Positions 876 to 31,400 of a stretch of 64,000 bases of DNA are shown here, one piece after another. The notes below the pieces were generated by a model that was given only the letters and a program-made list of their open reading frames with translations, ran no database searches and was not told the DNA's origin. Within the stretch, counting starts at the first letter, position 1. Each line of letters opens with the position of its first letter. Source of the DNA: Patescibacteria group bacterium (GTDB taxonomy: Bacteria > Patescibacteriota > Patescibacteriia > UBA11705 > DATKZF01); the NCBI GenBank assembly GCA_049319825.1, contig JBMORT010000002.1, positions 271,230 to 335,229 on the forward strand. Direction: 5' to 3'. Both the position numbers and the translations under genes were made by a program.

Positions 876-3800
876 ATGAATAGATCTTGGAAAAATAAAA
901 TTCTGATCGCGGCGCTATTTTTAGTGGTCGGTGTTTTGCTATGTTCAACTTTTGTTTTGGCTCAGGGCGATTTGGGCGCCACCGAAGTGGCGGGCGAAGC
1001 TGGCTTGGCCGGCGAAGCTGATCCGCGAATTATCATCGCCCGAATCATCAGAATAGTCTTTGGTTTTTTGGGGGTGATCGCTCTGGCTTTGGTGATCTAT
1101 GGCGGATTCGTTTGGATGACCGCCGGCGGCGATCCGGAGCAAGTGTCTAAGGCCAAAAAAATATTGGTCAACGCGTTAATTGGTTTGGCCATTATTTTGC
1201 TGGCGTTTTCCATCACTTCCTTCATCATTAATCGGCTCGAAGAAGCCGCCGGTTTGGGCGTTCAGGAATTTCAGCCGGGCGATGGGGAGGGCGGAATCCC
1301 CGGTGGCGGCGGACCGGGATCATTCAAAGTTAAAAGTATTCAGCCCATGGGCAGTATTCCCATCAGAAACGTGGCTGTTCGTCTGACATTTAATGATAAA
1401 ATCGATCCGAATACCGCTCAAAACGCCGTCAGCGTGGTTCGAACCAGCGATGGGCAGCCTGTGCAAGGACAGTTATCAGCGGCAAAATACAACTTAACAT
1501 TTATTCCGAATTCACCTTGTCCCGAGCCGAATCAGAATTTATTTTGCTTTGACGCCAACACCGCCTATACCGTTCGGGTCAGCTCTCAATTAAAAAATTT
1601 GGGCGGCGATAATTTGTCATGCGGCATCGCCAGCGTTTGCCAAGCGGAATTTACCACCGGTGAGCTGGTGGATACGGCCGCGCCCGGGGTGTCCTTAACC
1701 TCGCCTTACAATAATCAAGCCATCAGCGAGTTTTCGTTTTTTACTTTGACCGCCGACACCAATGACGACAGCGGCATTTCCGCGGTTGAGTTTTACGTGG
1801 ACGATCAATTGGTTGGCGCCGACGGGCCGCTGGAGGCGTCGACCGCTTTTTTGGCGCAGTTGGAATGGGATAACAGCGATTTCGATCGCGGTAATCACAG
1901 CGTGTACGCGAAAGCCTACGATTTGGATGATAATGAAACCCAATCAAGTTCCAAAAATTTTCGAATATTGGCTGAACACTGCTTTGACGGTCAGCGAAAT
2001 TTCGATGAAACCGGCGTGGATTGCGGCGGCGCTGATTGTTCTGGTTGTGACGGCGATAATTGTTTAACAGATACAGATTGCGCTACGGGCATTTGCTCCG
2101 CCGGCGTTTGCAGCAGCTACCCGACGATTACCGGCGTGTCCGGTGAAATCGGGGCGGCCGGCAATTTGCTGACCATTTGGGGCAGCGGTTTTGGCGGTTA
2201 TTTGTCCGGATCCAGCAAAGTCGAGTTTTCCGGAGCCGGACAAGGGCTGATTGAAGCCGGAGTGGCGTGTGATGATCAGTTTAGCTGGACGAGCACTCAG
2301 GTGGTCGTTAAAGTGCCGACCGACGCCCAAACCGGCGCCATCAAATTGACCAATCGCGACGGCTACTGGGATGACACGGCCAATGACCGCGGCTGGATCG
2401 GCGAATACACCATTGATCCGGTTTTGGTTTGGCCGGGTTTATGCTCGGTCGTCAATTCGGAGAGCGGCTTGCCCGAAGGGCGGTTTCAAGACACGGCTCG
2501 CGCCAGCGGCGAAAACATGGGCCAAAACGGACAGGTGCTGTTCGGCACATATTCAGCCAGCTTTTCCGGCGATTGGAACGATGATCAGATTGCCGGCATT
2601 GAAATTCCCAATATCGATAACGGCCGGACACTGGTTAGAATTTTGGTAGGCGAGCGATTCAGCAATCCTTTTGAATTTACCATATTATCGGCGCAAACAT
2701 TGCCGCAAATTTTAGAAATCGATCCGACCAGCGGCGGTGTCGGTCAATATGTGACCATCAAGGGATCCAATTTCGGCAGCTCACCGATTCCTGTTTTTTT
2801 CATCGCTCAAGACGGCACCGAATATCTGGCGGATACCAGCTTCCCAGACGGTTGTACTGACGGTTTATGGTCAGACAATGAAATTTTGGTGAAAGTGCCT
2901 CAGGCGCCGGCATCGAATTACGCCGTGTTGATTAGGGGCGCGGAGATCGAAAGCAATACCGTGCCTTTTACCATCACCAATCAGGCGCCCGCTCCGGGCA
3001 TTTGCCAAATGACTCCGAACAACGGTCCGATCGGCACTTTGGTCGATGTTTATGGCGAGCGGCTCGGGCCTGACGGCAAATTTATTTTTTCCAATAATAT
3101 CGAGGCCGGTATATCCAATGCGACGTCCGATACATATTTTCGCACACAGGTGGCGCCGCTGGCCGTGTCTGGCTCGGCTTATTACCGTTCCGCAGACAAC
3201 CAAGGCAGCAATTCAATGAATTTCTCTGTCGGCTCCTGCCAGGTCGGTTCATGTCCGACCGGAGCAGAGTGTTGCGCTGACGGCGTCTGCCGCGCCAGCG
3301 GCGCGTGCGAGGCGGCGATCAGCGCCGGCAGCTGCGAATATGGCTGGATGTTCAGCACCGGTCAGCTGCCGCTGATTCCGCAGGTGATAGAGGATCAAAC
3401 CTGCGACGACGATCACAATCAGTCGCCATCGCCATGGAAAAATTCAGTGGATGCCTGCACCAACGCTTTGATCGGCGCCAGGTTCAACATGGAAATGCAG
3501 CTGAGCGGCGTTATCTCAAAGCTTAGAGTCGAACGCTGTAGAAATCAAAATGAAACTTGTTCCTTTAACCGGTGTGATCTTTTAGACTCCGATTGTCTGA
3601 TCGAAACCATCGACAGTATCAGCCCCGGAGATAAATTGAGCAATTATTTTGTGATAAATTCAGTCAGCGGCGCCAACACGCTGCTGGCCAATATGAATTA
3701 TCGTGTGACCATACTCGGCGGCGAAGATGCGGGCATCAAAGGCGAAAACGGCATCGCCCTGCCCAAAGATTACAGCTGGCAGTTTAAAACCCAAAATAGT

Positions 3801-6800
3801 CCGTGCGAAATCGCCAATGTGATTTTGGAGCCTTCAAAAACAACAATCAAAGAATATTTGGGACAAAAAATATTTTCAGTTTACGGACAGTCGGAAAATT
3901 GCAACATACTAAACGTCGCCAATTTTAATTGGAACTGGTCAATTTCCCAAACCGGCAATAAAGCGGTCATCGTTTCGACCGAAAATGAGAAAGCCACTGT
4001 CGAAGCTCGAGAAGAAACGGCGCCCAATCAACCGGCGGTGGTTCAGGCGTCGGCGCTGGTGCCGCAAACCGGCGCCAGTCAATCGGACACCGCGGATTTG
4101 ACCATTGATTTTACCGACCCCAGGGTCATTGATTACGGCCCGAATTGCGATTCCGCCTGCATCAATACGCTGGTTTGGGCCAAGTTTAACACGGCAATGC
4201 CCGATCGGCAGGCGCGTGAGGCGATTTCCGTTTATGAATGCGAAGCCAAGCAATGCGCCGCGTTCAGCCAAATCCAGCGAAACAGATTCAACGTTGAATA
4301 TAATCAGGCGGAGAAAACGCTGTATGTTTTTGGCCGCGGCGGATTTGTTTTTTCGCCCAATAGATATTACCGCGTGGCCATTTCCTCGGCGCTCCAAAGC
4401 CTTAGCGGCGTCAATTTGGCCGGTTTGAATTTTGACCTCAATAAAGACGGCATCAATGATTCATTCTCGTGGGTGTTCAAAACCAAAAATGACGTCACGC
4501 TATGCGATATGGAAAGCGCCAAGGTTAATCCGGCTGTTTACGAAAGCACGGAGCCGGGAGAAAAGATAGGTTATGTGGTTGAAGCGGTCGGTACGCCGGA
4601 CGAATGCAACCCCAACGGTCAAAAAATCAATCCTTATATTTTCAATTGGAGCTGGACCAGCTCAAACGCCACTGTCGCCGAAATCACCGGCGAGCTTTTC
4701 AGCTCCGAATTCCCGAAAGACGTGTGTTCCGATAATTGTTTAAATATCGGCTCGGATAAGGTGGCGGCCATTTGCGGTAACGGCATTATTGAATACGGCG
4801 AAGAATGCGATGATTCCAATACCGATACCGGCGACGGCTGCGCTCCGATTTGTTTGCATGAGCCCGTAACCGATGTCAGCAACAATGGCACCTGCGGCAA
4901 CGGCATCATTGATCCGGCGGCGGGGGAGGAGTGCGACTATGCGCTCAATCCGGATATTTGCACCGCGGTTTGTCAGCGAGCCGGATCTTTTTTCAGCGGG
5001 TATGAATGCGGCAATGGCGGCAATCCCGAACCGGGAGAAGATTGCGACGACGGCAATCGCACCAATGGCGACGGCTGCAGCTCCAATTGCTTATTTGAAG
5101 GCAGTAAATACACCGCCCAGCAGGCGGAATCGGTTTCTCTTTGCGGCAATGGCGGCAATCCCGAACCGGGAGAAGATTGCGACGATGGCAATACTGATAA
5201 TGGCGATGGCTGTTCGGCGCGCTGTCTGGCCGAAGGGAGCGCGAATACCTGCGGCAATGGCGTTATCGATAATGGCGAAAATTGCGATGATAATAATACC
5301 GTCAATGGCGATGGGTGCTCGGCGCGTTGTTTGCTTGAGGGATCCAGCTGGTCTTACGGCTCATTTTGCGGCAATTCATCGCTGGAAACCGGTGAAGCTT
5401 GTGAAGCGGCCGTTGGCAGTGAGCTAAGGGGATCGCCGGTTCAGCTGGCGGAAGTCATCGGCTCTTTCAGCCCCCTGATCAATTCGGATTCGACCGATAT
5501 TACCGCGCGCGCCAAAAATATTGCGGGGCAATCAAAAGAAGACAGCGGACGCTTGACATACACTCGCAGCACTTGCCAAGCCATTCCGGAATCATTTACC
5601 ACCGCGCCGGTCGGCACCGCTGTTTGCCGCAATGCGGCGATTCAGCTGACTGTCAATCAGCCGGTGCAGATATCGGGCATCGCCGACGCCATTAACATCA
5701 CTTATCCTTGCGGCACGCTGACGCTGCTTGATAAAATAAAGTCATTTTTCGCAGATATCAAAAATAAAATAATCAGCCGGGCCAATGCTCAGGCGGTCGG
5801 TGAAACGATTGAATACAGCGGCACCGTCACCGCCATCGCCTTTACGCGCGGTGAGGTTAATTTTTCCGTTTATGATCAGGGACGGGAGATAAGATCAGTT
5901 GTTGACCGAGCATTGGTGCCCAGTACAGTTTGGGAGCTAGCCCAGCAGATAGATAATGGGGTGTCGGTACGGGTGATCGGCACGGTGACGCAAAACGTGC
6001 CGGCGGAAAATCGAATCTACGTTCAGGTAAATAATCTGGAACGAATCATCGTACAGCGACCGCCGTTCGTGCCCCAATTACCCAGACCCAGAGGCGTTTG
6101 CAGCGTGCCGCTCCGCGATATCAATGTACTCTACGATTCCCAATCAAGCACTAGCACGATAACCATATATCCGGAAGGGCTTTTAGCAGAAAACACCACC
6201 TATACCGTCGACTACTCGGGCTTGCGCGACCATTGCGGCACTTTGTTCGGTAATAATTCATATATGTTTACCACCGGCGATCTTGGCAATATTTGTCGAC
6301 TGGACTATGTTGACGTGGTTCCGGGTGACTTGCTGGTGACCAGCAGAAACGCCGAAACGGATTATCAGGCGTTTGCCAGAAGTCAGTCGCTTGATGCGCC
6401 GATTAATCCGGTCCCTGGAATTTACGATTGGAATTGGAGCTGGCGGTTGGCGACTGATTTAGATGATGTCACTTTGCAGGACAATTTCATCGGTTTAATT
6501 TTTGGCGGCAGTGACGATAAAAAAACACTAAAGACCGGGACATCGAACGGGCAGGCCACCGTGTTCGCCGAAGCCTCCGTTAGCAGCAGCAATTACGGCG
6601 ATGCCGGTAAAACAGTTGAAGGATTGGGAAATGTCACCATATTTGTTTGCGAGAATTTATGGATCGGTGAACAGTTTGATCCGATCATCAATGGCGTTTG
6701 GCAAAACTCGACGTTTAATTTTAAAACTTTTTACTGCCGCGACGCCGGTAATCCGGGTCCGGAGGGCGATTTACCAGATTTGAAAATCATCGAGGCTCCC

Positions 6801-7691
6801 GGCTTTCAGGGCGATCCGTGGGCGGTGTCTGACCCGGTGGTGGTCAAAGAATATTTTTTGCTCAGAACCACGGACACTATCACTCCGGACGCAATCGCGG
6901 TCCGAGTGTATCCGAATTTGGAAGGCGTGGCGCCGAGCATCTGGTATGATTTGCACGCGCCCAATCCCGGCCAGTACCAGCAATTGGACATCAGCTGCAC
7001 CGCGGATGAAAACGGCGCGCAATTTTGCTATCAGGCGGTCCAAGATAATCGCACCGTTTATGTGTCGGCCGCTAATTTTATCAGTGGAATTCCCGGTTTA
7101 CCGGTGCTCAGCCGTTTTTACGATAATGTGTTCGTAATTTCGTACAGCGAGAACTCGAATCCGGAAACCGTGGCCATTTTCAGCCAACTTCTGGAAAATT
7201 TGAAATTCAACACCAACCAGCAATCAGGTGAAACAATCAATAAAATCAAGCGCGATCTAAAGCGGTTTCACGATATTACCTTTATTCGCAGCTTGATAAA
7301 CACCTATCGCAGTCAGAATGGTCGCTGGCCGCTGTTGGCCGCTGATGGTCAATATGTCGCCGGTACTTATGCGGGCGGGCAGTCGATCAGCACGTGGCCG
7401 TCTTGGAACGCTGTTTTTGGCAATGTGCTCGGCTCTTCCCTGCCGCAAGATCCGATCAATAATTTTGGCCTGGCCTGCACCCCGCCCAGCCCGGAAAAAT
7501 ACGATCAGCTGACGTGCTATAATTCCCAAGATCAAATTTTTTATGGCGATTACGACGCGTCGCTGGCCAACGTTTACGATTATCGTCTAACAGATAATAA
7601 TCAATCATTTGAAATTAAATTCAATCCGGAATTGTATACCGCGCTTCGGTATCCGGACATTTGCGCCTTGAGCGGCGTGGTTTGCCAATAA
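876..7691 (+). CDS. Giant (2271 aa) secreted/surface protein. Signal peptide, TrbC/VirB2-like pilin-type N-terminal two-helix domain, IPT/TIG-like and Ig-like domains, six Cys-rich DUF4215-type repeats.
   Basis: One uninterrupted 6.8-kb ORF. N-terminal MNRSWKNKILIAALFLVVGVLL followed by the hydrophobic segment GGFVWMTAGGDPEQVSKAKKILVNALIGLAIILLAFSI. Recurring xTGVSGxIGxxGxxLTIxGSxFG (IPT-like) units. CGNGxxExGEECDDxNxxxGDGC units. Confidence 0.8.
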   Translation: MNRSWKNKILIAALFLVVGVLLCSTFVLAQGDLGATEVAGEAGLAGEADPRIIIARIIRIVFGFLGVIALALVIYGGFVWMTAGGDPEQVSKAKKILVNALIGLAIILLAFSITSFIINRLEEAAGLGVQEFQPGDGEGGIPGGGGPGSFKVKSIQPMGSIPIRNVAVRLTFNDKIDPNTAQNAVSVVRTSDGQPVQGQLSAAKYNLTFIPNSPCPEPNQNLFCFDANTAYTVRVSSQLKNLGGDNLSCGIASVCQAEFTTGELVDTAAPGVSLTSPYNNQAISEFSFFTLTADTNDDSGISAVEFYVDDQLVGADGPLEASTAFLAQLEWDNSDFDRGNHSVYAKAYDLDDNETQSSSKNFRILAEHCFDGQRNFDETGVDCGGADCSGCDGDNCLTDTDCATGICSAGVCSSYPTITGVSGEIGAAGNLLTIWGSGFGGYLSGSSKVEFSGAGQGLIEAGVACDDQFSWTSTQVVVKVPTDAQTGAIKLTNRDGYWDDTANDRGWIGEYTIDPVLVWPGLCSVVNSESGLPEGRFQDTARASGENMGQNGQVLFGTYSASFSGDWNDDQIAGIEIPNIDNGRTLVRILVGERFSNPFEFTILSAQTLPQILEIDPTSGGVGQYVTIKGSNFGSSPIPVFFIAQDGTEYLADTSFPDGCTDGLWSDNEILVKVPQAPASNYAVLIRGAEIESNTVPFTITNQAPAPGICQMTPNNGPIGTLVDVYGERLGPDGKFIFSNNIEAGISNATSDTYFRTQVAPLAVSGSAYYRSADNQGSNSMNFSVGSCQVGSCPTGAECCADGVCRASGACEAAISAGSCEYGWMFSTGQLPLIPQVIEDQTCDDDHNQSPSPWKNSVDACTNALIGARFNMEMQLSGVISKLRVERCRNQNETCSFNRCDLLDSDCLIETIDSISPGDKLSNYFVINSVSGANTLLANMNYRVTILGGEDAGIKGENGIALPKDYSWQFKTQNSPCEIANVILEPSKTTIKEYLGQKIFSVYGQSENCNILNVANFNWNWSISQTGNKAVIVSTENEKATVEAREETAPNQPAVVQASALVPQTGASQSDTADLTIDFTDPRVIDYGPNCDSACINTLVWAKFNTAMPDRQAREAISVYECEAKQCAAFSQIQRNRFNVEYNQAEKTLYVFGRGGFVFSPNRYYRVAISSALQSLSGVNLAGLNFDLNKDGINDSFSWVFKTKNDVTLCDMESAKVNPAVYESTEPGEKIGYVVEAVGTPDECNPNGQKINPYIFNWSWTSSNATVAEITGELFSSEFPKDVCSDNCLNIGSDKVAAICGNGIIEYGEECDDSNTDTGDGCAPICLHEPVTDVSNNGTCGNGIIDPAAGEECDYALNPDICTAVCQRAGSFFSGYECGNGGNPEPGEDCDDGNRTNGDGCSSNCLFEGSKYTAQQAESVSLCGNGGNPEPGEDCDDGNTDNGDGCSARCLAEGSANTCGNGVIDNGENCDDNNTVNGDGCSARCLLEGSSWSYGSFCGNSSLETGEACEAAVGSELRGSPVQLAEVIGSFSPLINSDSTDITARAKNIAGQSKEDSGRLTYTRSTCQAIPESFTTAPVGTAVCRNAAIQLTVNQPVQISGIADAINITYPCGTLTLLDKIKSFFADIKNKIISRANAQAVGETIEYSGTVTAIAFTRGEVNFSVYDQGREIRSVVDRALVPSTVWELAQQIDNGVSVRVIGTVTQNVPAENRIYVQVNNLERIIVQRPPFVPQLPRPRGVCSVPLRDINVLYDSQSSTSTITIYPEGLLAENTTYTVDYSGLRDHCGTLFGNNSYMFTTGDLGNICRLDYVDVVPGDLLVTSRNAETDYQAFARSQSLDAPINPVPGIYDWNWSWRLATDLDDVTLQDNFIGLIFGGSDDKKTLKTGTSNGQATVFAEASVSSSNYGDAGKTVEGLGNVTIFVCENLWIGEQFDPIINGVWQNSTFNFKTFYCRDAGNPGPEGDLPDLKIIEAPGFQGDPWAVSDPVVVKEYFLLRTTDTITPDAIAVRVYPNLEGVAPSIWYDLHAPNPGQYQQLDISCTADENGAQFCYQAVQDNRTVYVSAANFISGIPGLPVLSRFYDNVFVISYSENSNPETVAIFSQLLENLKFNTNQQSGETINKIKRDLKRFHDITFIRSLINTYRSQNGRWPLLAADGQYVAGTYAGGQSISTWPSWNAVFGNVLGSSLPQDPINNFGLACTPPSPEKYDQLTCYNSQDQIFYGDYDASLANVYDYRLTDNNQSFEIKFNPELYTALRYPDICALSGVVCQ
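4770..5400 (+). repeat. Tandem array of about six 46-codon Cys-rich repeats (CGNG..E.GE.CDDGN...GDGCS..C..EG; Myxococcus-type/DUF4215-like) inside the giant ORF
   Basis: Two units (about 5006-5056 and 5144-5194) are identical at 50 of 51 nt: tgcggcaatggcggcaatcccgaaccgggagaagattgcgacga(c/t)ggcaat. Confidence 0.8.
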
Positions 7692-11593: not shown

Positions 11594-12793
11594 ATGCCAG
11601 AAGTTAAACCGGAAATTGAAACCTTCGCCAAAATCAAGGTTCTTGGCGTTGGAGGAGGGGGAGGATCTGCTTTGAATCGCATGGTGCAGCAAAAAATAAG
11701 GGGAGTGGAATTCGTGGCCATTAACACGGATTTGCAGGCATTGCAATATTCATTAGCCGATCAGAAAATTCACATTGGCAGGACAACTACCAGGGGTCTT
11801 GGTGCTGGTATGAATCCGGAAATTGGACGCAAAGCCGCGGAAGAATCTCAAAATGAGTTAAGAGAAATATTAAAAGGCACAGACATGGCCTTTGTCACTT
11901 ATGGATTGGGCGGCGGCACCGGTTCCGGTGCCGGACCGATTGTTGCGGAATTAGCCAGAGAGCAGGGGGCTTTGACTATCGGCGTGGTGACAAAGCCTTT
12001 TTCATTTGAAGGCATGCCCAGAAAAAAAATCGCTGAAGAGGGTTTGGAAAAATTAAAAGAGCAGGTTGACACATTGATAATCATTCCCAATGACCGAATT
12101 TGGCAAATAATCGATAAAAAGACTCCTTTATTGGAGGCATTTTCCGTAGTCGATGAGGTATTAAAGCAAGGGGTTCAAGGCATTTCTGAATTAATAACAT
12201 TGCCGGGCTTAATAAATGTGGATTTCGCCGATGTTAAAACGATAATGAGAGATACGGGAGCGGCATTGATGGGAGTGGGCCATGGGACCGGAGAAAATCG
12301 AGCGATTGAAGCGGCCAGAGCGGCCATTTCCAGCCCATTGCTGGAATTGGCGATCGATGGCGCCAAGGGCATTTTATTTAACGTGGTTGGCGGCAACGAC
12401 ATCACTATGTATGAAGTCAGTGAAGCAGCCAAGGTGATCACCGAATCTGTTGACGCTGACGCCAAGATAATTTTTGGAGCGGTAATCGATGAGAATTTAA
12501 AGGATGAGATAAAAATCACGGTCGTCGCTACCGGATTCGATCCGAATATTACCTTCCACGATAAACCGCGCGTCACTAACAGCGTCACGCCGGTCACCAA
12601 GAGTTATTTTCAGGCCGATATTGAAAGAGAATCAGCGCCGATTTTCAAGGAAACAAAAATTGAAGGCGATAATTACCGAATGGATAAAACTCAGCCCAGG
12701 CCTGCGGAAAAACCGCCAATCAAGGCCGCTGACAGCGACAGCGATGAAGAAGATTTGGAAATCCCCGCGTTTATTAGGCGAAAAATGATGTGA
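11594..12793 (+). CDS. ftsZ: Cell division GTPase FtsZ
   Basis: Tubulin signature GGGTGSGAGP. Motifs VLGVGGGGGSALNRM and NTDLQAL. Acidic C-terminal tail ending DLEIPAFIRRK. Confidence 0.95.
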   Translation: MPEVKPEIETFAKIKVLGVGGGGGSALNRMVQQKIRGVEFVAINTDLQALQYSLADQKIHIGRTTTRGLGAGMNPEIGRKAAEESQNELREILKGTDMAFVTYGLGGGTGSGAGPIVAELAREQGALTIGVVTKPFSFEGMPRKKIAEEGLEKLKEQVDTLIIIPNDRIWQIIDKKTPLLEAFSVVDEVLKQGVQGISELITLPGLINVDFADVKTIMRDTGAALMGVGHGTGENRAIEAARAAISSPLLELAIDGAKGILFNVVGGNDITMYEVSEAAKVITESVDADAKIIFGAVIDENLKDEIKITVVATGFDPNITFHDKPRVTNSVTPVTKSYFQADIERESAPIFKETKIEGDNYRMDKTQPRPAEKPPIKAADSDSDEEDLEIPAFIRRKMM

Positions 12794-12841
12794 GAGTCAC
12801 GAATCTACAAATCAGCGCATTACATTATAAATAATTATAAA

Positions 12842-12866
12842 AGCCGCTCGAAAGGGCGGTTTTTTG
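12842..12866 (+). terminator. Rho-independent terminator after ftsZ
   Basis: Hairpin gccgctcgaaagggcgg followed by tttttt. Confidence 0.6.
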
Positions 12867-12999
12867 TCGCCGGCGAATACCGGATTACCGCCCGGTGAGT
12901 GGCTCTCCGATCGTCCTAGACCTTCCTGATGTCGGCATTGATTCGAGTTATTTATCCACAGAGGTTTTATGACGCAAAAATTCCTTTTGTTTTAGCAGA

Positions 13000-13201
13000 T
13001 GTTTCATGTTTTGAGTCGATATTTTATTTGTGTTATACTTTAAATAAGAAAGTGATTTGTACCAAATCCTGAAGACTATAAAACTTCAGGAGAACATGTG
13101 AGGAAGACTACAGCGGCGCCTGCCCAAGGGCTGGAGCTCGAATTGAGTCTTCTTTAATTTCCCCAAAAAAAAGCCGATGCTTTATCTAAATTTCCACTAA
13201 T
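13000..13201 (+). promoter_or_regulatory. nrdD promoter (TTGAGT-17-TATACT) and about 170-nt structured leader
   Basis: ttgagtcgatattttatttgtgttatact. Perfect 8-bp hairpin tcctgaag(actataaaa)cttcagga. Second long-range pairing gaagact...agtcttc. Weak SD before the ATG. Confidence 0.4.
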
Positions 13202-15280
13202 ATGTCTTTTCAGGACAATAAAATTTTTCAGATACGCAAAAGAGATGATCGCATTGTTGATTTTGAACAAGAAAAAATCACCAAAGCGATTTTAGCCTCC
13301 ATGCAGGCGGTTGACGAAGGCAATGTCGAGCTGGCCAATCGATTGTCTGATGAGGTGGTTGAGCAGCTGAACGCGCGTTTTCACGAGCGATCCATACCGG
13401 CGGTCGAGGAGATTCAGGATATTGTTGAAGAAATTTTAATGATTAATAAATTGTTCGGCTCGGCCAGAGCTTACATCATATACCGCGACCAGCATTCCAA
13501 AATGAGAGATTTGAAGTCAATGATTAATTCCGATGAATTGATGGACAGTTATTTGAAAAAAGTTGATTGGCGGGTGAAGGAAAACAGCAACATGGATTAT
13601 TCGCTGCAAGGGCTGAATAACTACGTGGCCTCGACGATCAGTTCTCATTATTGGCTCAATAAAATATATCCGCCCAAAATTCGAGAAGCTCACGTAAACG
13701 GCGATTTGCATATTCATGACCTCCAGCTGTTGTCCGCGTATTGCTGCGGTTGGGATCTTCGGGATTTATTAATTCGCGGATTTGGCGGCGTATCGGGCAA
13801 GGTGGAAAGCTCCGCGGCCAAGCATTTCGGCACCGCGCTCGGACAATTGGTCAATTTCTTTTATACGCTGCAGGGCGAATCCGCCGGCGCTCAGGCGGTT
13901 TCCAGCTTCGATACCTATTTGGCGCCGTTTATCCGCTATGACGGTTTGGATTTCAAACAGGTCAAGCAGCAGCTGCAAAATTTCATGTTCAACATGAATG
14001 TGCCAACCAGAGTCGGTTTCCAGACGCCGTTTACGAATATCACCTTGGATTTATTCGTCCCGGAAAATTTAAAAGATGAGCCGGTGATCGTCGGCGGCAA
14101 GCCACAGCGCGAAAAGCATGGTGAATTTCAAAAAGAAATGGATTTATTCAATGAAGCGCTGGTCGAGGTCATGCTTGAGGGAGACAACCGCGGCCGCGTG
14201 TTCTCGTTCCCCATTCCGACATACAATGTCAGTAAAAATTGGGATTGGCAGTCGCCGATTATTGACCGAATCATGGAAATGACCGCCAAATACGGAATTC
14301 CATATTTTTCCAATTTCATCAACAGCGACATGAAGCCGGAAGACGCGAGATCGATGTGCTGCCGGCTGAGATTGGATAATCGTGAGTTGAGAAAACGGGG
14401 CGGTGGCTTGTTTGGGGCCAATCCGTTAACCGGTTCGATTGGCGTCGTGACCCTGAATATGGCCAGAGTCGGCTATCTGGCAAAAAGCAAGGAAGATTTT
14501 TTTGAGCGAACCGCTCAATTGATGGATATCGCCAGAGAAAGCTTAAAAATTAAGAGAGATATTTTGGAAAGATTCACCGAGGGTAATTTATATCCGTACA
14601 CCAAACATTACTTGTCCTCCGTTAAAGAAAGATTCGGATATTTTTGGAAAAATCATTTCAACACCATCGGCTTGAACGGCGTTAATGAAGCTTGCCTAAA
14701 TTTACTGAAGGTTAATATTGTCGATCCGGAAGGCCATAAATTTGCCAAGCAAGTGCTCGATTTCATGAGGGAGCGACTGCACCAATATCAGCTGTCCGGC
14801 TCGGATTTATATAATTTGGAAGCGACCCCGGCCGAAGGCACGTCGTACCGATTCGCCAAAATCGATAAGGAAAAATATCCAGACATTACTTGCGCCAACG
14901 AAGAAGATTATCGCGATAAGGGATCAGATCCTTACTATACCAATTCCACGCATCTGCCGGTCAATTACACCGAAGACATGATTGAAGCGCTTAAAATGCA
15001 GGATGAATTGCAGACGCGCTATACCGGCGGCACGGTCTTTCACGGATTTATCGGTGAGCGCATGCCGTCAATCACGGCGACTAAAAGCTTAGTGAAGAAA
15101 ATAGCGGAAAATTTCCATCTGCCGTACTTTACCATCACTCCCACATTCAGTGTTTGCCCCAAGCACGGCTACATACCCGGAGAGCATGAATATTGTCCGC
15201 GCTGCGACGAGGAAATGGGCTATGGCGAAAGCGCTTTGCTTGAATGGAATCAAAAAGAAACCCAAACGGAACAATCTTAA
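13202..15280 (+). CDS. nrdD: Anaerobic (class III) ribonucleoside-triphosphate reductase NrdD body: ATP-cone plus catalytic barrel plus C-terminal Zn-ribbon. Glycyl-radical motif not in this ORF.
   Basis: N-terminal ATP-cone (IRKRDDRIVDFEQEKITKAI). 692 aa. C-terminal Zn ligands CPKHGY...CPRC. Followed by the radical-SAM activase nrdG. No RxxGY motif before the stop. Confidence 0.85.
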   Translation: MSFQDNKIFQIRKRDDRIVDFEQEKITKAILASMQAVDEGNVELANRLSDEVVEQLNARFHERSIPAVEEIQDIVEEILMINKLFGSARAYIIYRDQHSKMRDLKSMINSDELMDSYLKKVDWRVKENSNMDYSLQGLNNYVASTISSHYWLNKIYPPKIREAHVNGDLHIHDLQLLSAYCCGWDLRDLLIRGFGGVSGKVESSAAKHFGTALGQLVNFFYTLQGESAGAQAVSSFDTYLAPFIRYDGLDFKQVKQQLQNFMFNMNVPTRVGFQTPFTNITLDLFVPENLKDEPVIVGGKPQREKHGEFQKEMDLFNEALVEVMLEGDNRGRVFSFPIPTYNVSKNWDWQSPIIDRIMEMTAKYGIPYFSNFINSDMKPEDARSMCCRLRLDNRELRKRGGGLFGANPLTGSIGVVTLNMARVGYLAKSKEDFFERTAQLMDIARESLKIKRDILERFTEGNLYPYTKHYLSSVKERFGYFWKNHFNTIGLNGVNEACLNLLKVNIVDPEGHKFAKQVLDFMRERLHQYQLSGSDLYNLEATPAEGTSYRFAKIDKEKYPDITCANEEDYRDKGSDPYYTNSTHLPVNYTEDMIEALKMQDELQTRYTGGTVFHGFIGERMPSITATKSLVKKIAENFHLPYFTITPTFSVCPKHGYIPGEHEYCPRCDEEMGYGESALLEWNQKETQTEQS

Positions 15281-15364
15281 AACAAAAAATTAATTTATAT
15301 ATTGTGAGGAATATGGTGCCCTATTGGGCTAAAATAGGGCCCTTATTCATAATATACATTCGAT

Positions 15365-15511
15365 ATGGCATCACAAAAATTGGAAAGGCAAAAATGCGAA
15401 ATTTATTCGCGCGTAGTCGGTTATTTGAGTCCCGTTCAGCGATGGAACAAGGGTAAAAAAGCGGAATTCTCTGACAGGAAAGTGTATAATGCCATGAACG
15501 TCGCGGAATGA
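15365..15511 (+). CDS. 48-codon ORF encoding the NrdD glycyl-radical C-terminal motif (MASQKLERQKCEIYSRVVGYLSPVQRWNKGKKAEFSDRKVYNAMNVAE). Split nrdD tail.
   Basis: Same reading frame as nrdD (13202..15280, frame 2). Separated by an 84-nt spacer carrying in-frame stops at 15305, 15335 and 15350 and the hairpin gccctat(tgggctaaa)atagggc. RVVGYL and RWNKGK match the canonical NrdD glycyl-radical region. No obvious SD. Confidence 0.5.
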   Translation: MASQKLERQKCEIYSRVVGYLSPVQRWNKGKKAEFSDRKVYNAMNVAE

Positions 15512-15654
15512 TTGTAAAATACCTGTCCAGATGTTAAAATTAAGGCTGCTAGGCGGCCTTAATTTTATTCGTCGGCAAGAAATTAAAATCGACAAAAGTG
15601 CCGGCCGGCACTCACATACTTTTTTTCTCTTTCACCTGATATTATAAAGACACT

Positions 15655-16356
15655 ATGAAAATTGGCGGCATCCAAACGTTAACTTTGATCGATTATCCTG
15701 GCAAAGTGGCGGCGACTGTTTTTACTTTGGGTTGTAATTTTCGCTGCCATTTTTGTCATAATCCGGAGTTGGTCAATATCAAAAAAAAATCATGGACCAT
15801 GTCTTCGGCCAAGGTTTTTGAATTTTTAAAAAGTCGCGGCCAGTTTTTGGACGGCGTTTGCATTACCGGCGGCGAGCCGACAATTCATGCCGATTTCCTT
15901 AATTTTTTAAGTAAAATAAAAGCGCTCGGCTTGGCCGTTAAATTGGATACCAACGGATTGAATTTCCCGGCGCTGAAGCGGGCGATCGATCACCAGCTGG
16001 TCGATTATGTGGCCATGGATATTAAGGCGCCATGGGAAAAGTACCCGGTCATTGTGGGCGAACCGATCGAGGTCGAGCCGGTAAAAAAAAGCGCCGAGTA
16101 TCTTATGAACAGCGGGGTCGAATACGAGTTCAGAAGCACGGTGCTCCCGGCGCTTCACCCGCCGGCCGACATCATCGAAATGGCCAGGCAAATCAAAGGC
16201 GCGAAAAAATATTATTTACAACAGTTCAAACCTTTTGCTAAAATAGTAAATGATGACTACCGACAAGCCAAGTCATACACGCGTCAAGACTTGATTAAAA
16301 TAAAAAACAAAATTAAGAATTGGTTCGATACGGTGAGAATTAGGGAAAATATTTAA
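15655..16356 (+). CDS. nrdG: Anaerobic ribonucleotide reductase activating protein (radical SAM) NrdG
   Basis: CxxxCxxC radical-SAM motif GCNFRCHFCHNPE. 233 aa. Adjacent to nrdD. Confidence 0.85.
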   Translation: MKIGGIQTLTLIDYPGKVAATVFTLGCNFRCHFCHNPELVNIKKKSWTMSSAKVFEFLKSRGQFLDGVCITGGEPTIHADFLNFLSKIKALGLAVKLDTNGLNFPALKRAIDHQLVDYVAMDIKAPWEKYPVIVGEPIEVEPVKKSAEYLMNSGVEYEFRSTVLPALHPPADIIEMARQIKGAKKYYLQQFKPFAKIVNDDYRQAKSYTRQDLIKIKNKIKNWFDTVRIRENI

Positions 16357-16408
16357 TCGGAGATTGATTGGGGGATTTGTAGATTTGTAACTTATAATTT
16401 GTAATTAT

Positions 16409-16681
16409 ATGGAGGAAAAAAATTTAAAAGATGAGGTTGCGGAATTAAAACAGCTGGTCAGAAGAAATATTGAATACACGCAAGAGCTTCGAATGGTCTC
16501 GGACAAAACCAGAAAGTACATACTCTGGATACAAATCATCAATTTATTTAAATTGTTGATTATTTTAGTGCCATTGATTTTGGCTTTGATTTATCTGCCG
16601 CCGTTAATTCGTGATTTTGTGGAAAAATATAAAGAGCTTTTCGGATCGAGCGGGTTTTTTTTAGACATGTTTAATAGATAA
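16409..16681 (+). CDS. Hypothetical small protein: N-terminal coiled coil, C-terminal TM helix
   Basis: ORF only. Hydrophobic stretch INLFKLLIILVPLILALIYLPPL. Followed by a strong terminator. Confidence 0.4.
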   Translation: MEEKNLKDEVAELKQLVRRNIEYTQELRMVSDKTRKYILWIQIINLFKLLIILVPLILALIYLPPLIRDFVEKYKELFGSSGFFLDMFNR

Positions 16682-25476: not shown

Positions 25477-28400
25477 ATGAATTTAAGGCCAAAACAAAAA
25501 ATCATACTGGGCGTAATCGTATTCATCTGTTGTGGTATTTTTTTTCAGTTTTGTTTTTGGTTCGTCGCTTCAAAGCCGGCCAACGCGCAAATCGGAGAGA
25601 CGGCGCTGGAAGCGCAATTACGGTCGCTGCGCGAGCAGGGACAAGAAAACTATCGGGCTTTTCAAGAGGCCGTACGGCGCTATGAAGAAAAAGCGCAAGA
25701 GGAATTTGGTCAGCGGCTTAAGGAAGGATTTATCAGAACCGCGGCCATCACTTTAAAAAATACTTTAATATACACCATTCAGCAGGCCGGCCGACAAACC
25801 ATGCAGTACGTGGCTACCGGCCAGTGGGGGCAGGGCCCGATGTTCTGGGAACAAAGCTTTGACTACTTTAAGCAAACCATCGTCGGCGCGGCTACCCAGG
25901 AAATGCTGGACACGCTGGCTTATCAGCTTTGGTCAGAGACCGGTTTTGACATGTGCGATCCCGATGTCGATGTCAAATTGGCCATCATGTACAATTTGCA
26001 GCTTAATTTGCCCAATCCGCAATACGAACTGGTCGCCCCGCGTTGCGACTGGCGATTGGTAAAAAACAATTGGGAAGGTTTTTACGATGAAGTGCGCGGA
26101 CAGGTGAAAGACGCTGTCGGATTAACTTACGCGGCCATGGGGGCGATGCAAGATTCGCTCGATCCGAAGCAAAATGATTTCGGCATATTTTTAAAGGCGC
26201 TGGATCAAAATTTTGCCCGGCAAAAAGAAGAATACGAAGCGGCCAGAGACGAGCGGCTGGCGCCATCCAAATTAAAAGATCAAACTTCGGTGGTCACCGG
26301 ATTTGTGCAGACTCCCAGCTATGTGGTGGAGACTTCGGTTAAAAGCGATTGGGAAGCGGTGCTGGCCAGCCGTCGCGAAGAACTAAAGACCGGTGAAGCG
26401 GTATTGGCCGAAATTCCGGAAACGGTTTTAGCCGCCTTTATCCAAAGTTTCGGCCCGCAGCAATTCCTGGTCGCGTTTTTGAATAGAGTAAAAAGCGGTT
26501 TAATCAAGCGATCCGAAAGCTACAATCCGGTCCAAAAAGTGTATGAACAGAAAAAGTCAATCGAAAAGGTGAATACTGAAGTGCTGACCGCTGATTTTTC
26601 ATTTGAGCCGCGCAGTGTCAGCTTAATAGATGAATTCGTGAATTGTCCTTCGGAAAGTAATCGCAATACTCCGCGCGGACAAAATGATTGCGTCTTGGAT
26701 CGCAGTTTCGCCGAAGCGGTGCGGCGAGCGGCCTTGGGAGAACCGCTGACTTTGGAGCAGGCGATCGCTCAGGGGTTGATCAATGATACTCTGCCGTTCT
26801 ACGGCCCTCAAGATAAAGAAAATAACACTCCGGAATGCTATAATCGCGGTTTTTGCTACAGTAATTTGCAAAAGCTTCGAAAGGCCAGAATTATTCCGCT
26901 GGGCTGGGAGATGGCGGCGCTGAAAATGGCTGAAGAAGGCCGTAAAACTTTGAGAGAAGTGATTAATCAATTCAATAATCCGAATTCACCGTTTTATCGA
27001 TTGGTTGATCCCGGCTGGATATTAAAAGAGCCGTCCACCGTTTGCCGAGCCGAAGTGTACGGGCCGGATGTTATCGGCGAAGGCGCCTCCAGCCGATCCG
27101 AAGTTTGTTCCGATTATCGAAGCTGCGTCGACGAGCTGCCCAGCGGCGAATGCGTCGGCGGCTATGGCTATTGCGCCGAGGAAAAACGCACCTGGCTCCT
27201 CGAGGGCGATTCCTGCGACGGTCAGTTCGCTGGGTGCACCAATTTGTATGATCGCGGCGGTAATCAACAGAGCTGGGTGTTAAATACGCTGGACTCGTCC
27301 GGATGCGATTCCTCATCGGTCGGTTGCCGGCAGTACAGCTTATGGAAAGATGACGGCAAAGTTTGGACCAACAGCACACTGGCCGAACACAGCGATTCCG
27401 GCTATCAGCGCTGGATATTCTTAAATAAAAATATTGAATCCCTTTTATGCACGCCCGATAACGAGGGTTGTACCCGATTCATCAGGACCGCGGCAGATCT
27501 GGGCTCCAATTTATTGATTAATAGCGGCCTTGAAGACGCCGATGAAAATGGTGAAATCCCCGGCTGGCAAATTATGCTGGATGGCGGGGTCACCCGAGAG
27601 ATCGCGACTTCCATCGATATTGTAAACAGCGGTGCCAAGAGCGCTTACGTGCAAAAGGATTCAGCCGTGTCGAGCATTTGGCAATTAACATCCGATGAAA
27701 TTTCCATTGTGCCTAAAGACTACAGCCGATATTATATTTTGAGTTACTATCTCTATCAAACCGATCAAGACATTGTCGCTGCCGGCCTTCAATATAAAAA
27801 TTACACGGGAATCAACACCTTTAATTGGGCCGATGCCGTGCAGGTTTCCAGCTCATATTTGGATGGAATCAAAAATCCCGACGGTTCGCTGAATGCCGCA
27901 AGTATAAGCACCGGTATATGGCAGCGTCATTACGTACTGGTTAATTTGCCGCCCCAAACCGATGATGGTCGCCTAATCGACCGGCTGCGCGTCGCTTTTA
28001 ATTTCGGAGATGGCGGATCATATTATGTCGATGATCTGCAGATTGAAGAAGTGTTCAGCCCCACTACCTTTGCTTTATATGCGCCGTATGCCTCGACCAA
28101 CGCCGACTATTTAAAACAGGCGCCAGATTATTATAACTGCTACGACGAATTTCCAAATAACGACGCTCCGGAATGCGCCAATTTCATGCCGGTCTGCTCG
28201 GCCGAAGCAGTCGGCTGCGAGCGTTACACTCCGACCGACGGTGGCGCGGCGCAGACCGCGGTGGTCGGTCGATATAATTACTGCCCGGCCGAATGCGTCG
28301 GCTATCAATCGTTCTCTCAGTCAGAGACATTTTTCGAGCCGCTGACATTCCCCGTGTACTTTATCCCATCGACAGCCAGAACATGCGAACAAGAAAACGT

Positions 28401-31400
28401 CGGCTGTGAAACATACACCAATCTCGATGTGTTGGCTCAGGGCGGTGAAGCCATCAATTATTTCAAACAAGTTAAGCAGTGCTTAAAATCAGACCCGGAA
28501 AGTCCTCATCCCGATTGCGCCACTTTTTACACCTGGACCGGCTCCGGCGATTCGGGCTATCAGATTACCAATTACAGCTTGAGAGATCGAGACAAAGACG
28601 GCCAGCCGGACGTCACCGACCCGGCCAAAGACGCGGCTGAATGCGACGCGGATGTTTATAATTTTCAGCTTAATCCCGATTGCCGGCAGTTTTACAACCA
28701 AGCCGGACAAATTTCATATCATTTAATTTCTTTAACCATCACTTGCGCCGAGGATTGCAGTCCGTTTAGGCTGGAAGCTTCTTATGCCGATCTGGCCGCG
28801 GCTCGGGCTAAATGTGAGCCGCCAATTGGCAATGGCACATGGGACTTGACCACGAATAAGTGTATTTACCAAATCATCCCGTCCGAGGCGCTGACTTGCC
28901 CGGCCGCCGAATCCGGCTGCCGCGAATACAAAGGCAATTTTTCCGGAGATGTTGAAGTGCTGTACCAAGAAGATTTTGAAGCCGGATTGGGAACTTGGTT
29001 TGATAATGCTTCAAATAAAGATATCTCTTACTCATCGGAATCTCTTAATCTTGGCGGACATTCCATGGAAATCCCATCGACTGTTCCGGCTATTTATGAG
29101 CCGTCTGCCGATAACAGCGTCCCATTTTCATCGGGCGCTCAATATTCCGTTTCTTTCTGGGCCAAGCCGGACGCTGATTTGAACACGGAAGACTCGTCGG
29201 CTCGACTGCAGGTCTTATTGCAGACTTCTTACGCCGGTGGCGGAGATAGTATCCCTGTCGGTACTTTGAGCTATCGCGGCGGCGATTGGAATCTATATAC
29301 CGCCACAGTTAATTATACCGGCCCGGACGCTCAGCTTCTGCGATTGACCATTACCAATGTTTATTCCGCGGGAGATAATTCGGTTTACGTTGACAACATT
29401 AAAATTTCCAGAGTCAATCAATTTCAATATTTGGTCAAAAATTCATGGAGCACTCCGCAAATTTGCGATACCAGATTGGACGGAGTCGATCCATTGCCTC
29501 AGGCCATGCTCGGCTGCCGCGAATACAGCGACCGCGACGGTACATTGCATTATTTGCGGTCGTTCAATAATTTCTGCGGCGACGATGTAGTCGGCTGCGA
29601 GGCATTGATTGATACCAAAAATAACAGGGAATATCAAGAGAAAATTTATAATCCTGGAATTATTAATGTTTGCGAAGTTCCGGAAATTAAGTCACAACAA
29701 GTCACTGGAGGCAATTGCAATTTAAAGATGATGACCTACTTTTGTAATAATAGTGATGTCATTAACAATCCGACTGCTTGCATAAATGCCGGACAAGAGA
29801 GTTTGGAAGCGTTTTTCTCCCTCCTTGCGGGGTTAATTGCCGGCAATAATGCCAGTGAGGCTTCCTTGACCGCGTTGGTATGCAACGCTTTAAGCATACA
29901 GGAAGGCTATGATTATAGCTGGAACGTGCAATTAAATGCTTGCGTGAAAAATAATGCGCTCGACCAATTCGGCGTCCCCGCCGATGAGCTGGTTTACCGC
30001 GTCGTGTCCGAAGAAATGTCTTGCGACGCGGATCAAAAGGGCTGTACTGCAGCCGGACAAGCCGGGTTTTCATACGACCAAAGCATTGTCGAATGGTACG
30101 ATACATTCTTTATCCTCGATCCGGACAATTTGACCGGCCTGCTGTGCTCCGAGGCCAGTTTGGGCTGTGAGCAGTTCGCGGATTCCAATAAAAACATACA
30201 CTTTTTGAAGGACCCCGGATTAAGATATTGCGAATACCGAAGCGATCTGGCGCAAGCGGGTTGGTACGAGGCCGGTTCTGAGCCGCCGGCACCCTGCAAG
30301 ACATGGGAGCCTTATCAGGACGGAGTAAAAGCTGTTTTACCGAATTATCATCCTGATTATTTGCTTTCAAATCAAGACAGCACAGTGCTGGAAAACACCG
30401 GCTGGGCCGCGAGTTGTCCCGAAACTCAGTCCGCTTGCACCGCGTTCATTGATCCGGCTGATAAAACTTCTAACTATGTGGGCAGGACTTATTATTATAA
30501 AAATAATGATAAAATAGACCGCGACAGCTGCGATGGCGTGGTTGATCCGAAAGAGGGCTGCATGCTTTTTCAGGATACAGCAGCGGGTGAGGCGAAATTC
30601 AGCGCGGATGCCACTTATTTTCTGAATTACTTGTCCGATGACCCGACTGCTCCGTTCAATTTAAATAATTTAAGTGATTCTGATTTAATTTCTCTAAATG
30701 ACGGAACCATATCCAAACTAACCAACAATGATTATGATTGGTCGTATCAATCGATGCGGGTTTTATCACCGGTATCTAATATCAGCCCCAAGGATGAAGT
30801 GGAATATTCATTGTTGCTCAATGGCGGCCAGCAGACTATTTCTTCCGTGTATCAATTGATATCCGGCGACCAGGATTATCGTTTTACCAATGACTCGAAC
30901 ACGGTATTAAAGGTGAAGCAAGACCGCCAATGTTCCAAATGGTACAGCTGTCTGCCGAGCATGGCTTGGGACAATGCCAACACGCAGTGGGTGGAAGTCT
31001 GCGAGCTTTCCATTCTCTGCGATAAGTATTCGCGCAGCGGAGGCAGCGCTTATTGCAGCCACGCGATCGTGCCCGGCGCGGAATCGAGCACGCCGCTCAA
31101 CGAAAATGAGTACTTCACCGAAGCTAAATATGTTGACCGGCAATCGACTAAATTCCCATTCTTGAATTTATACCATGATTTATATACTCCCGATTATTCC
31201 GGCTATGCCATATATAATCAGGTGCCGCTGCAATTTCTGACGGCCGTTGATTTGGCCGATAGCTACGAATCATTGGGCCAGCACTTCAGTTTATTGGCTC
31301 AATTTGAAACCGCCGGCGCTTGCAATACCGATGCGGATTGCGCTTCAGCCTTAAGTGGCCAGTTTATTGAGGCGTACGGATCCGCTGTCCAAAGTACCAT

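Follow-up and report, generated by a model that had tools for sequence, protein, structure and literature searches.

A putative two-subunit class III ribonucleotide reductase in Patescibacteria with the glycyl-radical loop encoded by a separate small gene

All glycyl radical enzymes (GREs) characterised to date carry, to our knowledge, the radical glycine on the catalytic chain itself. In the characterised class III ribonucleotide reductases (RNRs), the NrdD proteins, the Zn ribbon, radical loop and tail form a single C-terminal domain of the catalytic chain (PMC11226230). In this fused domain a Zn site is combined with a glycine loop that is buried and a tail at the surface, and cryo-electron microscopy (cryo-EM) and hydrogen-deuterium exchange on the P. 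copri enzyme indicate that the domain is highly mobile, behaves as a rigid body and must exit the barrel for activation (PMC11226230). Among the GREs, spare parts are known for formate lyases and for no other class (2026 review, PMC13450708): here GrcA/YfiD (and T4 Y06I) acts as an autonomous glycyl-radical (GR) cofactor that repairs pyruvate formate-lyase (PFL) cleaved by O2, and earlier authors have speculated that further spare parts might exist (PMC8683613). In this work we analyse the nrdD locus of a Patescibacteria metagenome-assembled genome, which lies in a stretch of 64,000 nt (hereinafter the window; contig JBMORT010000002.1, positions 271,230 to 335,229, of assembly GCA_049319825.1; all coordinates below are those of the window). 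At this locus the NrdD chain is broken 3-4 residues past the last Zn ligand, and the radical loop and tail are encoded as a separate product, such that the gene order reads ftsZ (11594-12793), nrdD body (13202-15280), radical peptide gene (15365-15511) and nrdG (15655-16356).

The comparative sequence evidence set out below makes it likely that this locus specifies a naturally two-subunit class III RNR, in which two separate polypeptides would form the functional enzyme. That the enzyme is truly split and its radical domain detachable was one of four possibilities raised by a first-pass annotation, in which a model read the DNA without database searches, and it is the one that receives strong support from the related genomes. 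The split itself is real, conserved and recurrently evolved; its parts are annotated in the databases and it has apparently gone unremarked. We found no description of a split NrdD or of an NrdD spare part in the searchable literature, which mostly lacks the subscription journals and thus leaves room for a prior description.

The catalytic body and the radical peptide

The larger of the two open reading frames (ORFs), ORF1 (13202..15280, + strand), encodes a body of 692 residues that lies above the curated thresholds of the NrdD family, with 1030 bits against NCBIfam NF006126 (cut-off 548), 510 bits against TIGR02487 (cut-off 326) and 598 bits against the Pfam NRDD profile PF13597 (cut-off 26.2). 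It is 100% identical to a Patescibacteria protein at NCBI (P0001). Residues 10-99 constitute an ATP-cone (PF03477). Cys181, Cys386 and Cys387 (in YCCGWD and SMCCRLRL) are invariant in an alignment of 24 homologues that includes the canonical P0112, and their catalytic roles can be assigned by homology. Further, ORF1 is predicted to carry the C-terminal Zn-binding ribbon, with C652, H655, C665 and C668 as its ligands (CPKH...CPRC; nt 15155-15205). The PF13597 match, however, runs only from profile position 1 to 530 of 562 and stops at residue 671 (..CPRCDEE). What follows is a short tail, DEEMGYGESALLEWNQKETQTEQS (15206..15277, + strand), of which the D-E-E-M/I-G-Y part is conserved and the remainder variable, and no RxxGY motif is found anywhere in ORF1.

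The missing part lies on ORF2 (15365..15511, + strand), which encodes the 48-residue peptide MASQKLERQKCEIYSRVVGYLSPVQRWNKGKKAEFSDRKVYNAMNVAE of about 5.5 kDa, consisting of the radical loop RVVGY, with Gly19 at 15419-15421, and the conserved WNKGK tail. Its residues 9-41 match PF13597 positions 531-562 (E 1.2e-10), and with a GR hidden Markov model it returns an E of 3e-22, no other match turning up when the whole window was translated in six frames. Aligned with the solved NrdD of T. maritima (PDB 4COI), residues 159-670 of ORF1 cover its residues 101-610, and residues 9-46 of ORF2 cover 611-649; the two thus meet at 610|611 and between them tile the enzyme exactly. The first-pass annotation had noticed both the body that ends after its Zn ribbon without RxxGY and the small ORF with the missing loop and tail, and the profiles bear it out on both. 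As the loop resides on ORF2 and not on ORF1, the system is a split variant rather than one with the canonical NrdD architecture.

Several lines of evidence establish ORF2 as a gene in its own right. It is already annotated as a protein by NCBI (P0121), and all of its 59 homologues in the databases, called as genes by NCBI and JGI, are 42-77 residues long. A search of 1.84 billion cluster representatives with a profile of these peptides yielded 5110 hits, the best 150 of which are all 48-149 residues in length. Across ten Patescibacteria loci, the small ORF shows a mean proportion of synonymous differences (pS) of 0.83, i.e. saturation, and a mean proportion of nonsynonymous differences (pN) of 0.12; between the window and the close relative L081 the values are 0.88 and 0.022. 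The peptide gene is under strong purifying selection by these values. The gene for the cognate radical S-adenosylmethionine activase, nrdG (15655..16356, + strand; 233 residues), is intact immediately downstream, as had been noted at first reading, matching TIGR02495 (NrdG2) at 205.9 bits (cut-off 131.15) as well as PF04055.

A few stand-alone radical peptides of other genomes show deviant features. Those of L003-L009, L115, L141 and P0162 share an unusual fingerprint of RVVGW, with Trp for the usual Tyr, LTPV and NYNPGK. Another group (P0165, P0172-P0176) starts with MKCG(K/R)KCEIYSRVVGYH, with a Cys-x3-Cys stretch resembling the end of the Zn ribbon; this suggests that the split point lies a few residues earlier in these proteins, in which a metal site might bridge both chains. 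In P0180 and P0191 the radical motif is tandemly duplicated within the peptide, which probably reflects assembly artefacts.

The split across relatives and its origin

Comparison with related genomes, proposed by the first-pass annotation as a check, finds the split to be conserved but not the sequence or length of the spacer. We considered the 120 best homologues of the body (66-100% identity), which come mostly from Patescibacteria (Falkow-, Kuenen-, Uhr- and Buchananbacteria among others). All but one of these stop shortly after CPxCDEE(M/I)GY without RxxGY, the sole canonical fused NrdD being P0112. In the 119 truncated homologues, the positions following the CxxC are occupied by D (119), E (94), E (117), M or I (112), G (119) and Y (113); the sequence beyond is variable and the median tail is 20 residues long. 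Three NrdD homologues of about 1015 residues (P0054, P0056 and P0061) carry some 320 extra residues near PF13597 position 155 without a Pfam match, which may represent an intein or a domain insertion; their bodies, too, are without the radical loop.

We also collected 164 related loci from GTDB genomes and from metagenomes, together with near relatives of the window. In 69 of these loci a small ORF with a start codon of its own carries the radical domain, and in them the frame of the peptide relative to the body is 0, +1 and +2 in 23, 24 and 22 cases, while the gap ranges from -20 nt (an overlap) to +264 nt. The in-frame arrangement of the window, to which the first-pass annotation had attached meaning, is accordingly a one-in-three coincidence. 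A Shine-Dalgarno (SD)-like motif accompanies the peptide gene in 37 of the 69, several of these being canonical GGAGG and some lying within the final codons of the body. In five loci (L042, L097, L113, L155 and L117), nrdG separates the peptide gene from the body, and the gaps span 720-1274 nt; that of L117 also holds a guanylate-kinase-like ORF. In L120, L137 and L157 the body tail ends in ..IGY(V/K/N)GGN*, and the Gly-Gly codons encode the GGAGG SD of the peptide gene; with the peptide's ATG 0-1 nt past the stop and the SD within the body codons, translation of the two genes appears to be tightly coupled. Among the 145 loci in which the C-terminal end of the body is present, a GR hit is missing only from L008, whose contig ends 24 nt past the stop codon. 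The three closest relatives (L081, L083 and L084) share the synteny ftsA-ftsZ-nrdD-peptide-nrdG, with bodies that are 84% identical to that of the window. Overall, over 60 independent assemblies, which stem from many projects and lineages, show the split layout, and hundreds of uncultured bacteria and archaea share it. A search of a phage collection returned three hits, two under annotations of anaerobic ribonucleoside triphosphate reductase and the third unannotated, and does not indicate a phage origin.

The 84-nt intercistronic spacer of the window (15281..15364, + strand) can be read directly from the sequence, and the first description of it, with ORF1 and ORF2 in the same frame, three in-frame stops and a hairpin between them, is accurate. 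ORF1 ends in TAA (15278-80), and the further in-frame stops are TGA (15305-07), TAG (15335-37) and TAA (15350-52); with all three stop codon types in frame, no reassignment of the genetic code could permit read-through. Folding of the spacer RNA, which had also been suggested, shows that the hairpin GCCCTAT-N9-ATAGGGC (15318-15340) is the tip of a longer stem-loop (15298..15356, + strand) with a minimum free energy of -23.8 kcal/mol and a z of -3.35, equalled by none of 200 shuffles. It ends 8 nt before the start codon of ORF2 and is a weak terminator-like match. The emphasis first placed on this hairpin holds in part: its own sequence is not conserved, being absent from L081, L083 and L084, whose spacers of 62, 32 and 53 nt are unrelated in sequence and set the genes in different frames, but hairpins as such are statistically enriched in the spacers. 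Thus, 36 related spacers (40-270 nt) fold better than their shuffles, with a mean z of -2.06 and 16 of them below -2. An inter-cistron stem-loop is hence frequent, though not universal, and it may set the relative expression of the two genes or mark a processing site.

Downstream of the peptide gene, the region 15509-15654 also folds stably (-36.2 kcal/mol, z -3.42). It holds a strong terminator-like hairpin between the peptide gene and nrdG, AAAATTAAGGCTGC-TAG-GCGGCCTTAATTTT (15535..15567, + strand), and a second hairpin, GTGCCGGCCGGCAC (15597..15612, + strand), which is followed by a T-run upstream of nrdG. The former, of the form TTAAGGC...GCCTTAA and flanked by an A-run and a T-run, occurs at the same position in L081, L083 and L084. 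The two hairpins suggest that nrdG is transcriptionally separate from nrdD and the peptide gene. Upstream of the body, a consensus scan picks out a promoter-like site, TTGAGT-17 nt-TATACT with a TG before the -10 hexamer (13011..13039, + strand), whose TTGAG -35 and TATA(C/A)T -10 elements are the columns that stay conserved when the upstream regions of the same three relatives are aligned; the leader of about 160 nt that follows is not conserved in this alignment. The site may act as the nrdD promoter. A search for NrdR boxes upstream of nrdD gave nothing above chance, and an Rfam scan of 12700-16500 (E<=1) gave three matches, all at chance level and none in the spacer. Elsewhere, the window contains two very large + strand ORFs, at 876-7691 (2271 residues) and 25477-34938 (3153 residues).

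As to the origin of this layout, a sister arrangement found in L035, L077 and L165-L168 is instructive. Here, an intact NrdD with its own loop is followed by a protein of 86-88 residues and then by nrdG, often with nrdR upstream. The small protein (4659-4919 in L035; 3001-3267 in L165-L168) matches PF13597 positions 509-562 and so spans both Zn ribbon and GR loop. At least 627 clusters of this type of protein exist, mostly in Moran-, Pace- and Parcubacteria. In each genome, the stand-alone loop is nearly identical to the resident one, with which it co-varies, and the DNA of the two differs mainly at third codon positions. To judge by its sequence, the 86-88-residue protein looks like a true GrcA-type spare part for an intact NrdD, and the sister arrangement probably represents the state from which the layout seen in the window evolved.

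A neighbor-joining tree built on the last 249 residues of the body, which is indicative only, implies about 11 switches between fused and split. The split clades differ in their body ends: CPxCDEEMGY in Patescibacteria/DPANN, CPYDHSPEEL in Leptospirales, CPYHDHEAA in Desulfuromonadales and CPKCKAQKIED in Elusimicrobia. Together, these point to several fissions at or near the same junction. On the tree, L054 is sister to L035 and L077, and it combines a truncated body with the same Zn-ribbon/GR protein; the series from intact NrdD plus the extra protein to truncated NrdD plus the extra protein suggests duplication of the 3' end of the gene, followed by decay of the resident copy. Accordingly, we posit that the nrdD 3' end would have been duplicated to give, as an intermediate, an intact NrdD with a stand-alone radical protein, whereupon the resident loop would have decayed to leave the vestigial DEEMGY tail. 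Such an origin is consistent with the GR-like body tails in the subclade of the window. The body tail of the close relative L083, MGYLESPLIDWSGEKKAE, aligns to its own GR peptide at VGYL-SPVQRWNKGKKAE (z 6, p<0.0005); the corresponding p is 0.02 for L081 and 0.2 for the window, the last not being significant alone. The body tail is therefore probably a remnant of the resident radical loop that the ancestral protein carried, which it resembles from the glycine onward.

Proposed mechanism and alternative readings

If the enzyme is indeed built of two subunits, the 48-residue peptide would be translated independently from its own ATG, NrdG would abstract the hydrogen from its Gly19, and the peptide would insert non-covalently into the barrel of the body next to Cys386/387. 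As in fused NrdD, the glycyl radical would then produce a thiyl radical on the cysteine of the finger loop. In this scheme the Zn site would stay with the body, with the loop and tail becoming a free peptide, and the peptide would be obligatory as the body has lost its radical domain. Two advantages seem likely. The glycine of a free peptide might be easily reached by the activase, for which the fused enzymes need the whole domain to be swung out; and, after O2 cleavage at the radical glycine, 48 residues would have to be replaced instead of an enzyme of 740. Taking the obligatory radical peptide and the true spare part of the sister arrangement together, we lean slightly towards the broader view that they form a large, as yet unnamed family of NrdD-derived, exchangeable GR cofactors of 45-90 residues, in which the two-component type of the window would have evolved convergently at least five times and the DEEMGY loop would be a docking or activase-recruiting element of the body.

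Certain observations weigh against a two-subunit enzyme and need to be set beside those in its favour. No SD sequence precedes ORF2; this is uninformative, because an SD-like motif is present in just 7 of the 42 long ORFs of the window, where the leaders are AT-rich and the genome appears to initiate mostly without SD. In fused enzymes the loop is tethered by the Zn ribbon; the peptide has none, such that its stable binding must be assumed. AlphaFold2, run on the concatenated ORF1 and ORF2 without an alignment, reached a mean predicted local distance difference test score of 33.6 and offers no docking model; in the MAFFT alignment, the short peptides were placed scattered along the body. Finally, the near-invariance of D-E-E-M/I-G-Y hints at a role for the body tail outside the model outlined above.

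This last feature is the starting point of a reading in which the body is self-sufficient, Gly673 of its MGY being a minimal resident radical site and ORF2 a facultative, GrcA-like spare for use after O2 damage. The near-invariance of Gly673 and Tyr674 in the 119 homologues would fit it, as would the homology of the tail to the GR loop and the occurrence of true NrdD spare-part arrangements in other genomes of the candidate phyla radiation. Yet Glu stands in place of the Arg of RxxGY, the glycine lies 5 rather than 12 residues past the last Zn ligand, the WNxGK tail is degenerate or missing in most members, and the NrdD profile recovers no GR match in ORF1. Moreover, the independently split bodies of Leptospirales, Desulfuromonadales and Elusimicrobia have no GY in their tails at all, and we regard a self-sufficient body as improbable. 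Rejected as well is bypassing or recoding, an option listed by the first-pass annotation, whereby a single polypeptide would span the gap through programmed bypassing, read-through of stop codons or a different recoding event with the hairpin as its signal. The scatter of frames and gap lengths over the 69 loci, including overlaps, speaks against it, as do the intercalation of nrdG in five of them, the own ATG and conserved N-terminal leader of every peptide ORF, the TGA, TAG and TAA in frame within the spacer, and the lack of conservation of spacer and hairpin in relatives with 84%-identical bodies. Against all this stand the window's two in-frame ORFs, the stable hairpin in its gap and the stop codon after the body, and recoding is accordingly a very improbable reading.

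The remaining readings would have the nrdD gene interrupted or broken. For a small intervening element, be it an intron, an intein remnant or a miniature transposon, inserted into an originally continuous nrdD and excised from its RNA or protein, one can cite the excess of 174 nt, a multiple of three, that separates position 530 of the profile from position 531, along with the inverted repeat inside it. This extra sequence is, however, explained as the vestigial GR tail plus the leader of the peptide itself, which together amount to only about 30 residues without intein blocks; there is no Rfam match, group I and II introns included; in many relatives the genes overlap or stand just 0-30 nt apart, too close for such an element to fit in between; and the spacer is not conserved even at 84% body identity. 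These considerations reduce the intervening element to a faint prospect. As for a recent disruption, a pseudogene or an error of sequencing or assembly, frameshifts and misassemblies do occur in metagenome-assembled genomes, but the same architecture in so many independent assemblies, the truncation of 119 of 120 homologues at the same point, the saturation of synonymous sites alongside conserved proteins, the invariant active-site residues of the body and the intact nrdG render the probability of such an artefact practically negligible. Some specific candidates were also tried and rejected. The only repeat considered as a pair of take-off and landing sites, TATGGC, would resume translation in the wrong frame. 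Bypassing of the gene 60 type was dismissed with no conserved gap, frame or landing codon and with independent initiation; an intron or intein was dismissed with no intron structure, with spacers that are too short in the relatives and with stops that exclude an intein.

Comparison with known systems and implications

Should the two-subunit reading hold, this would be the first GRE with its radical residue constitutively on a separate polypeptide and, with the sister arrangement, the first spare-part system outside the formate lyases. A natural two-piece NrdD would show the radical loop working in trans, and the peptide of about 5.5 kDa would offer a minimal substrate for the study of activase recognition and radical insertion by electron paramagnetic resonance, nuclear magnetic resonance and cryo-EM. 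It also suggests how O2-sensitive dNTP synthesis might stay cheap in the genome-reduced Patescibacteria/DPANN at oxic-anoxic interfaces. For annotation and metabolic reconstruction, the implication is that the truncated nrdD should be treated as functional and the small ORF be given a name. In evolutionary terms, the locus would provide a worked example of gene fission through duplication of the 3' end and subsequent decay of the resident copy.

With the canonical single-chain NrdD/NrdG systems of T4, E. coli, T. maritima (4COI/4U3E) and P. copri (8P23), the locus belongs to the same family by profile. It has in common with them the ATP-cone, the barrel, the finger-loop cysteines, the Zn ribbon, the RVVGY loop, the WNxGK tail and the adjacent activase, and it differs in the placement of the loop and tail on a second chain. 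Interrupted coding sequences in a context of phage or nucleotide metabolism are familiar from T4: in the gene 60 bypass a stop codon and a hairpin stand at the gap, and T4 nrdD (sunY) is interrupted by a group I intron. Unlike these, the window is revealed by the comparative data to hold two independent genes, with no match to an intron model.

The likeness to GrcA/YfiD, which the first-pass annotation had drawn, is apt in that both are small stand-alone proteins with a GR loop (the 48-residue ORF2 with RVVGY in the present case) that would be activated by the cognate activase and complement a body without a functional radical domain (PMC8683613). It fails in other respects: Pfam and NCBIfam scans of ORF2 match only NrdD models and not PF01228 or GrcA, which marks the peptide as NrdD-derived, and whereas GrcA is a facultative protein of about 14 kDa beside a PFL with its own radical domain, the peptide of the window is much smaller and would be obligatory. 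A partner with its own radical domain is encountered only in the sister arrangement of L035, L077 and L165-L168. Both this arrangement and the window encode an NrdD-derived stand-alone radical protein between nrdD and nrdG; in the former the body keeps its loop and the small protein includes the Zn ribbon, whereas in the latter the peptide is without the Zn ribbon and the body without the loop.

A more distant parallel is offered by the class I RNRs, in which a stable radical likewise resides on a separate polypeptide, NrdB, and is delivered to the same active-site cysteine of NrdA (see also PMC9669993). However, NrdB, at about 40 kDa, is a metalloprotein with the ferritin fold, and its tyrosyl or metal-centred radical is made with O2 and transferred over a long distance. 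In the window, the corresponding role would fall to a peptide of 48 residues, with a backbone glycyl radical that would have to sit inside the barrel.

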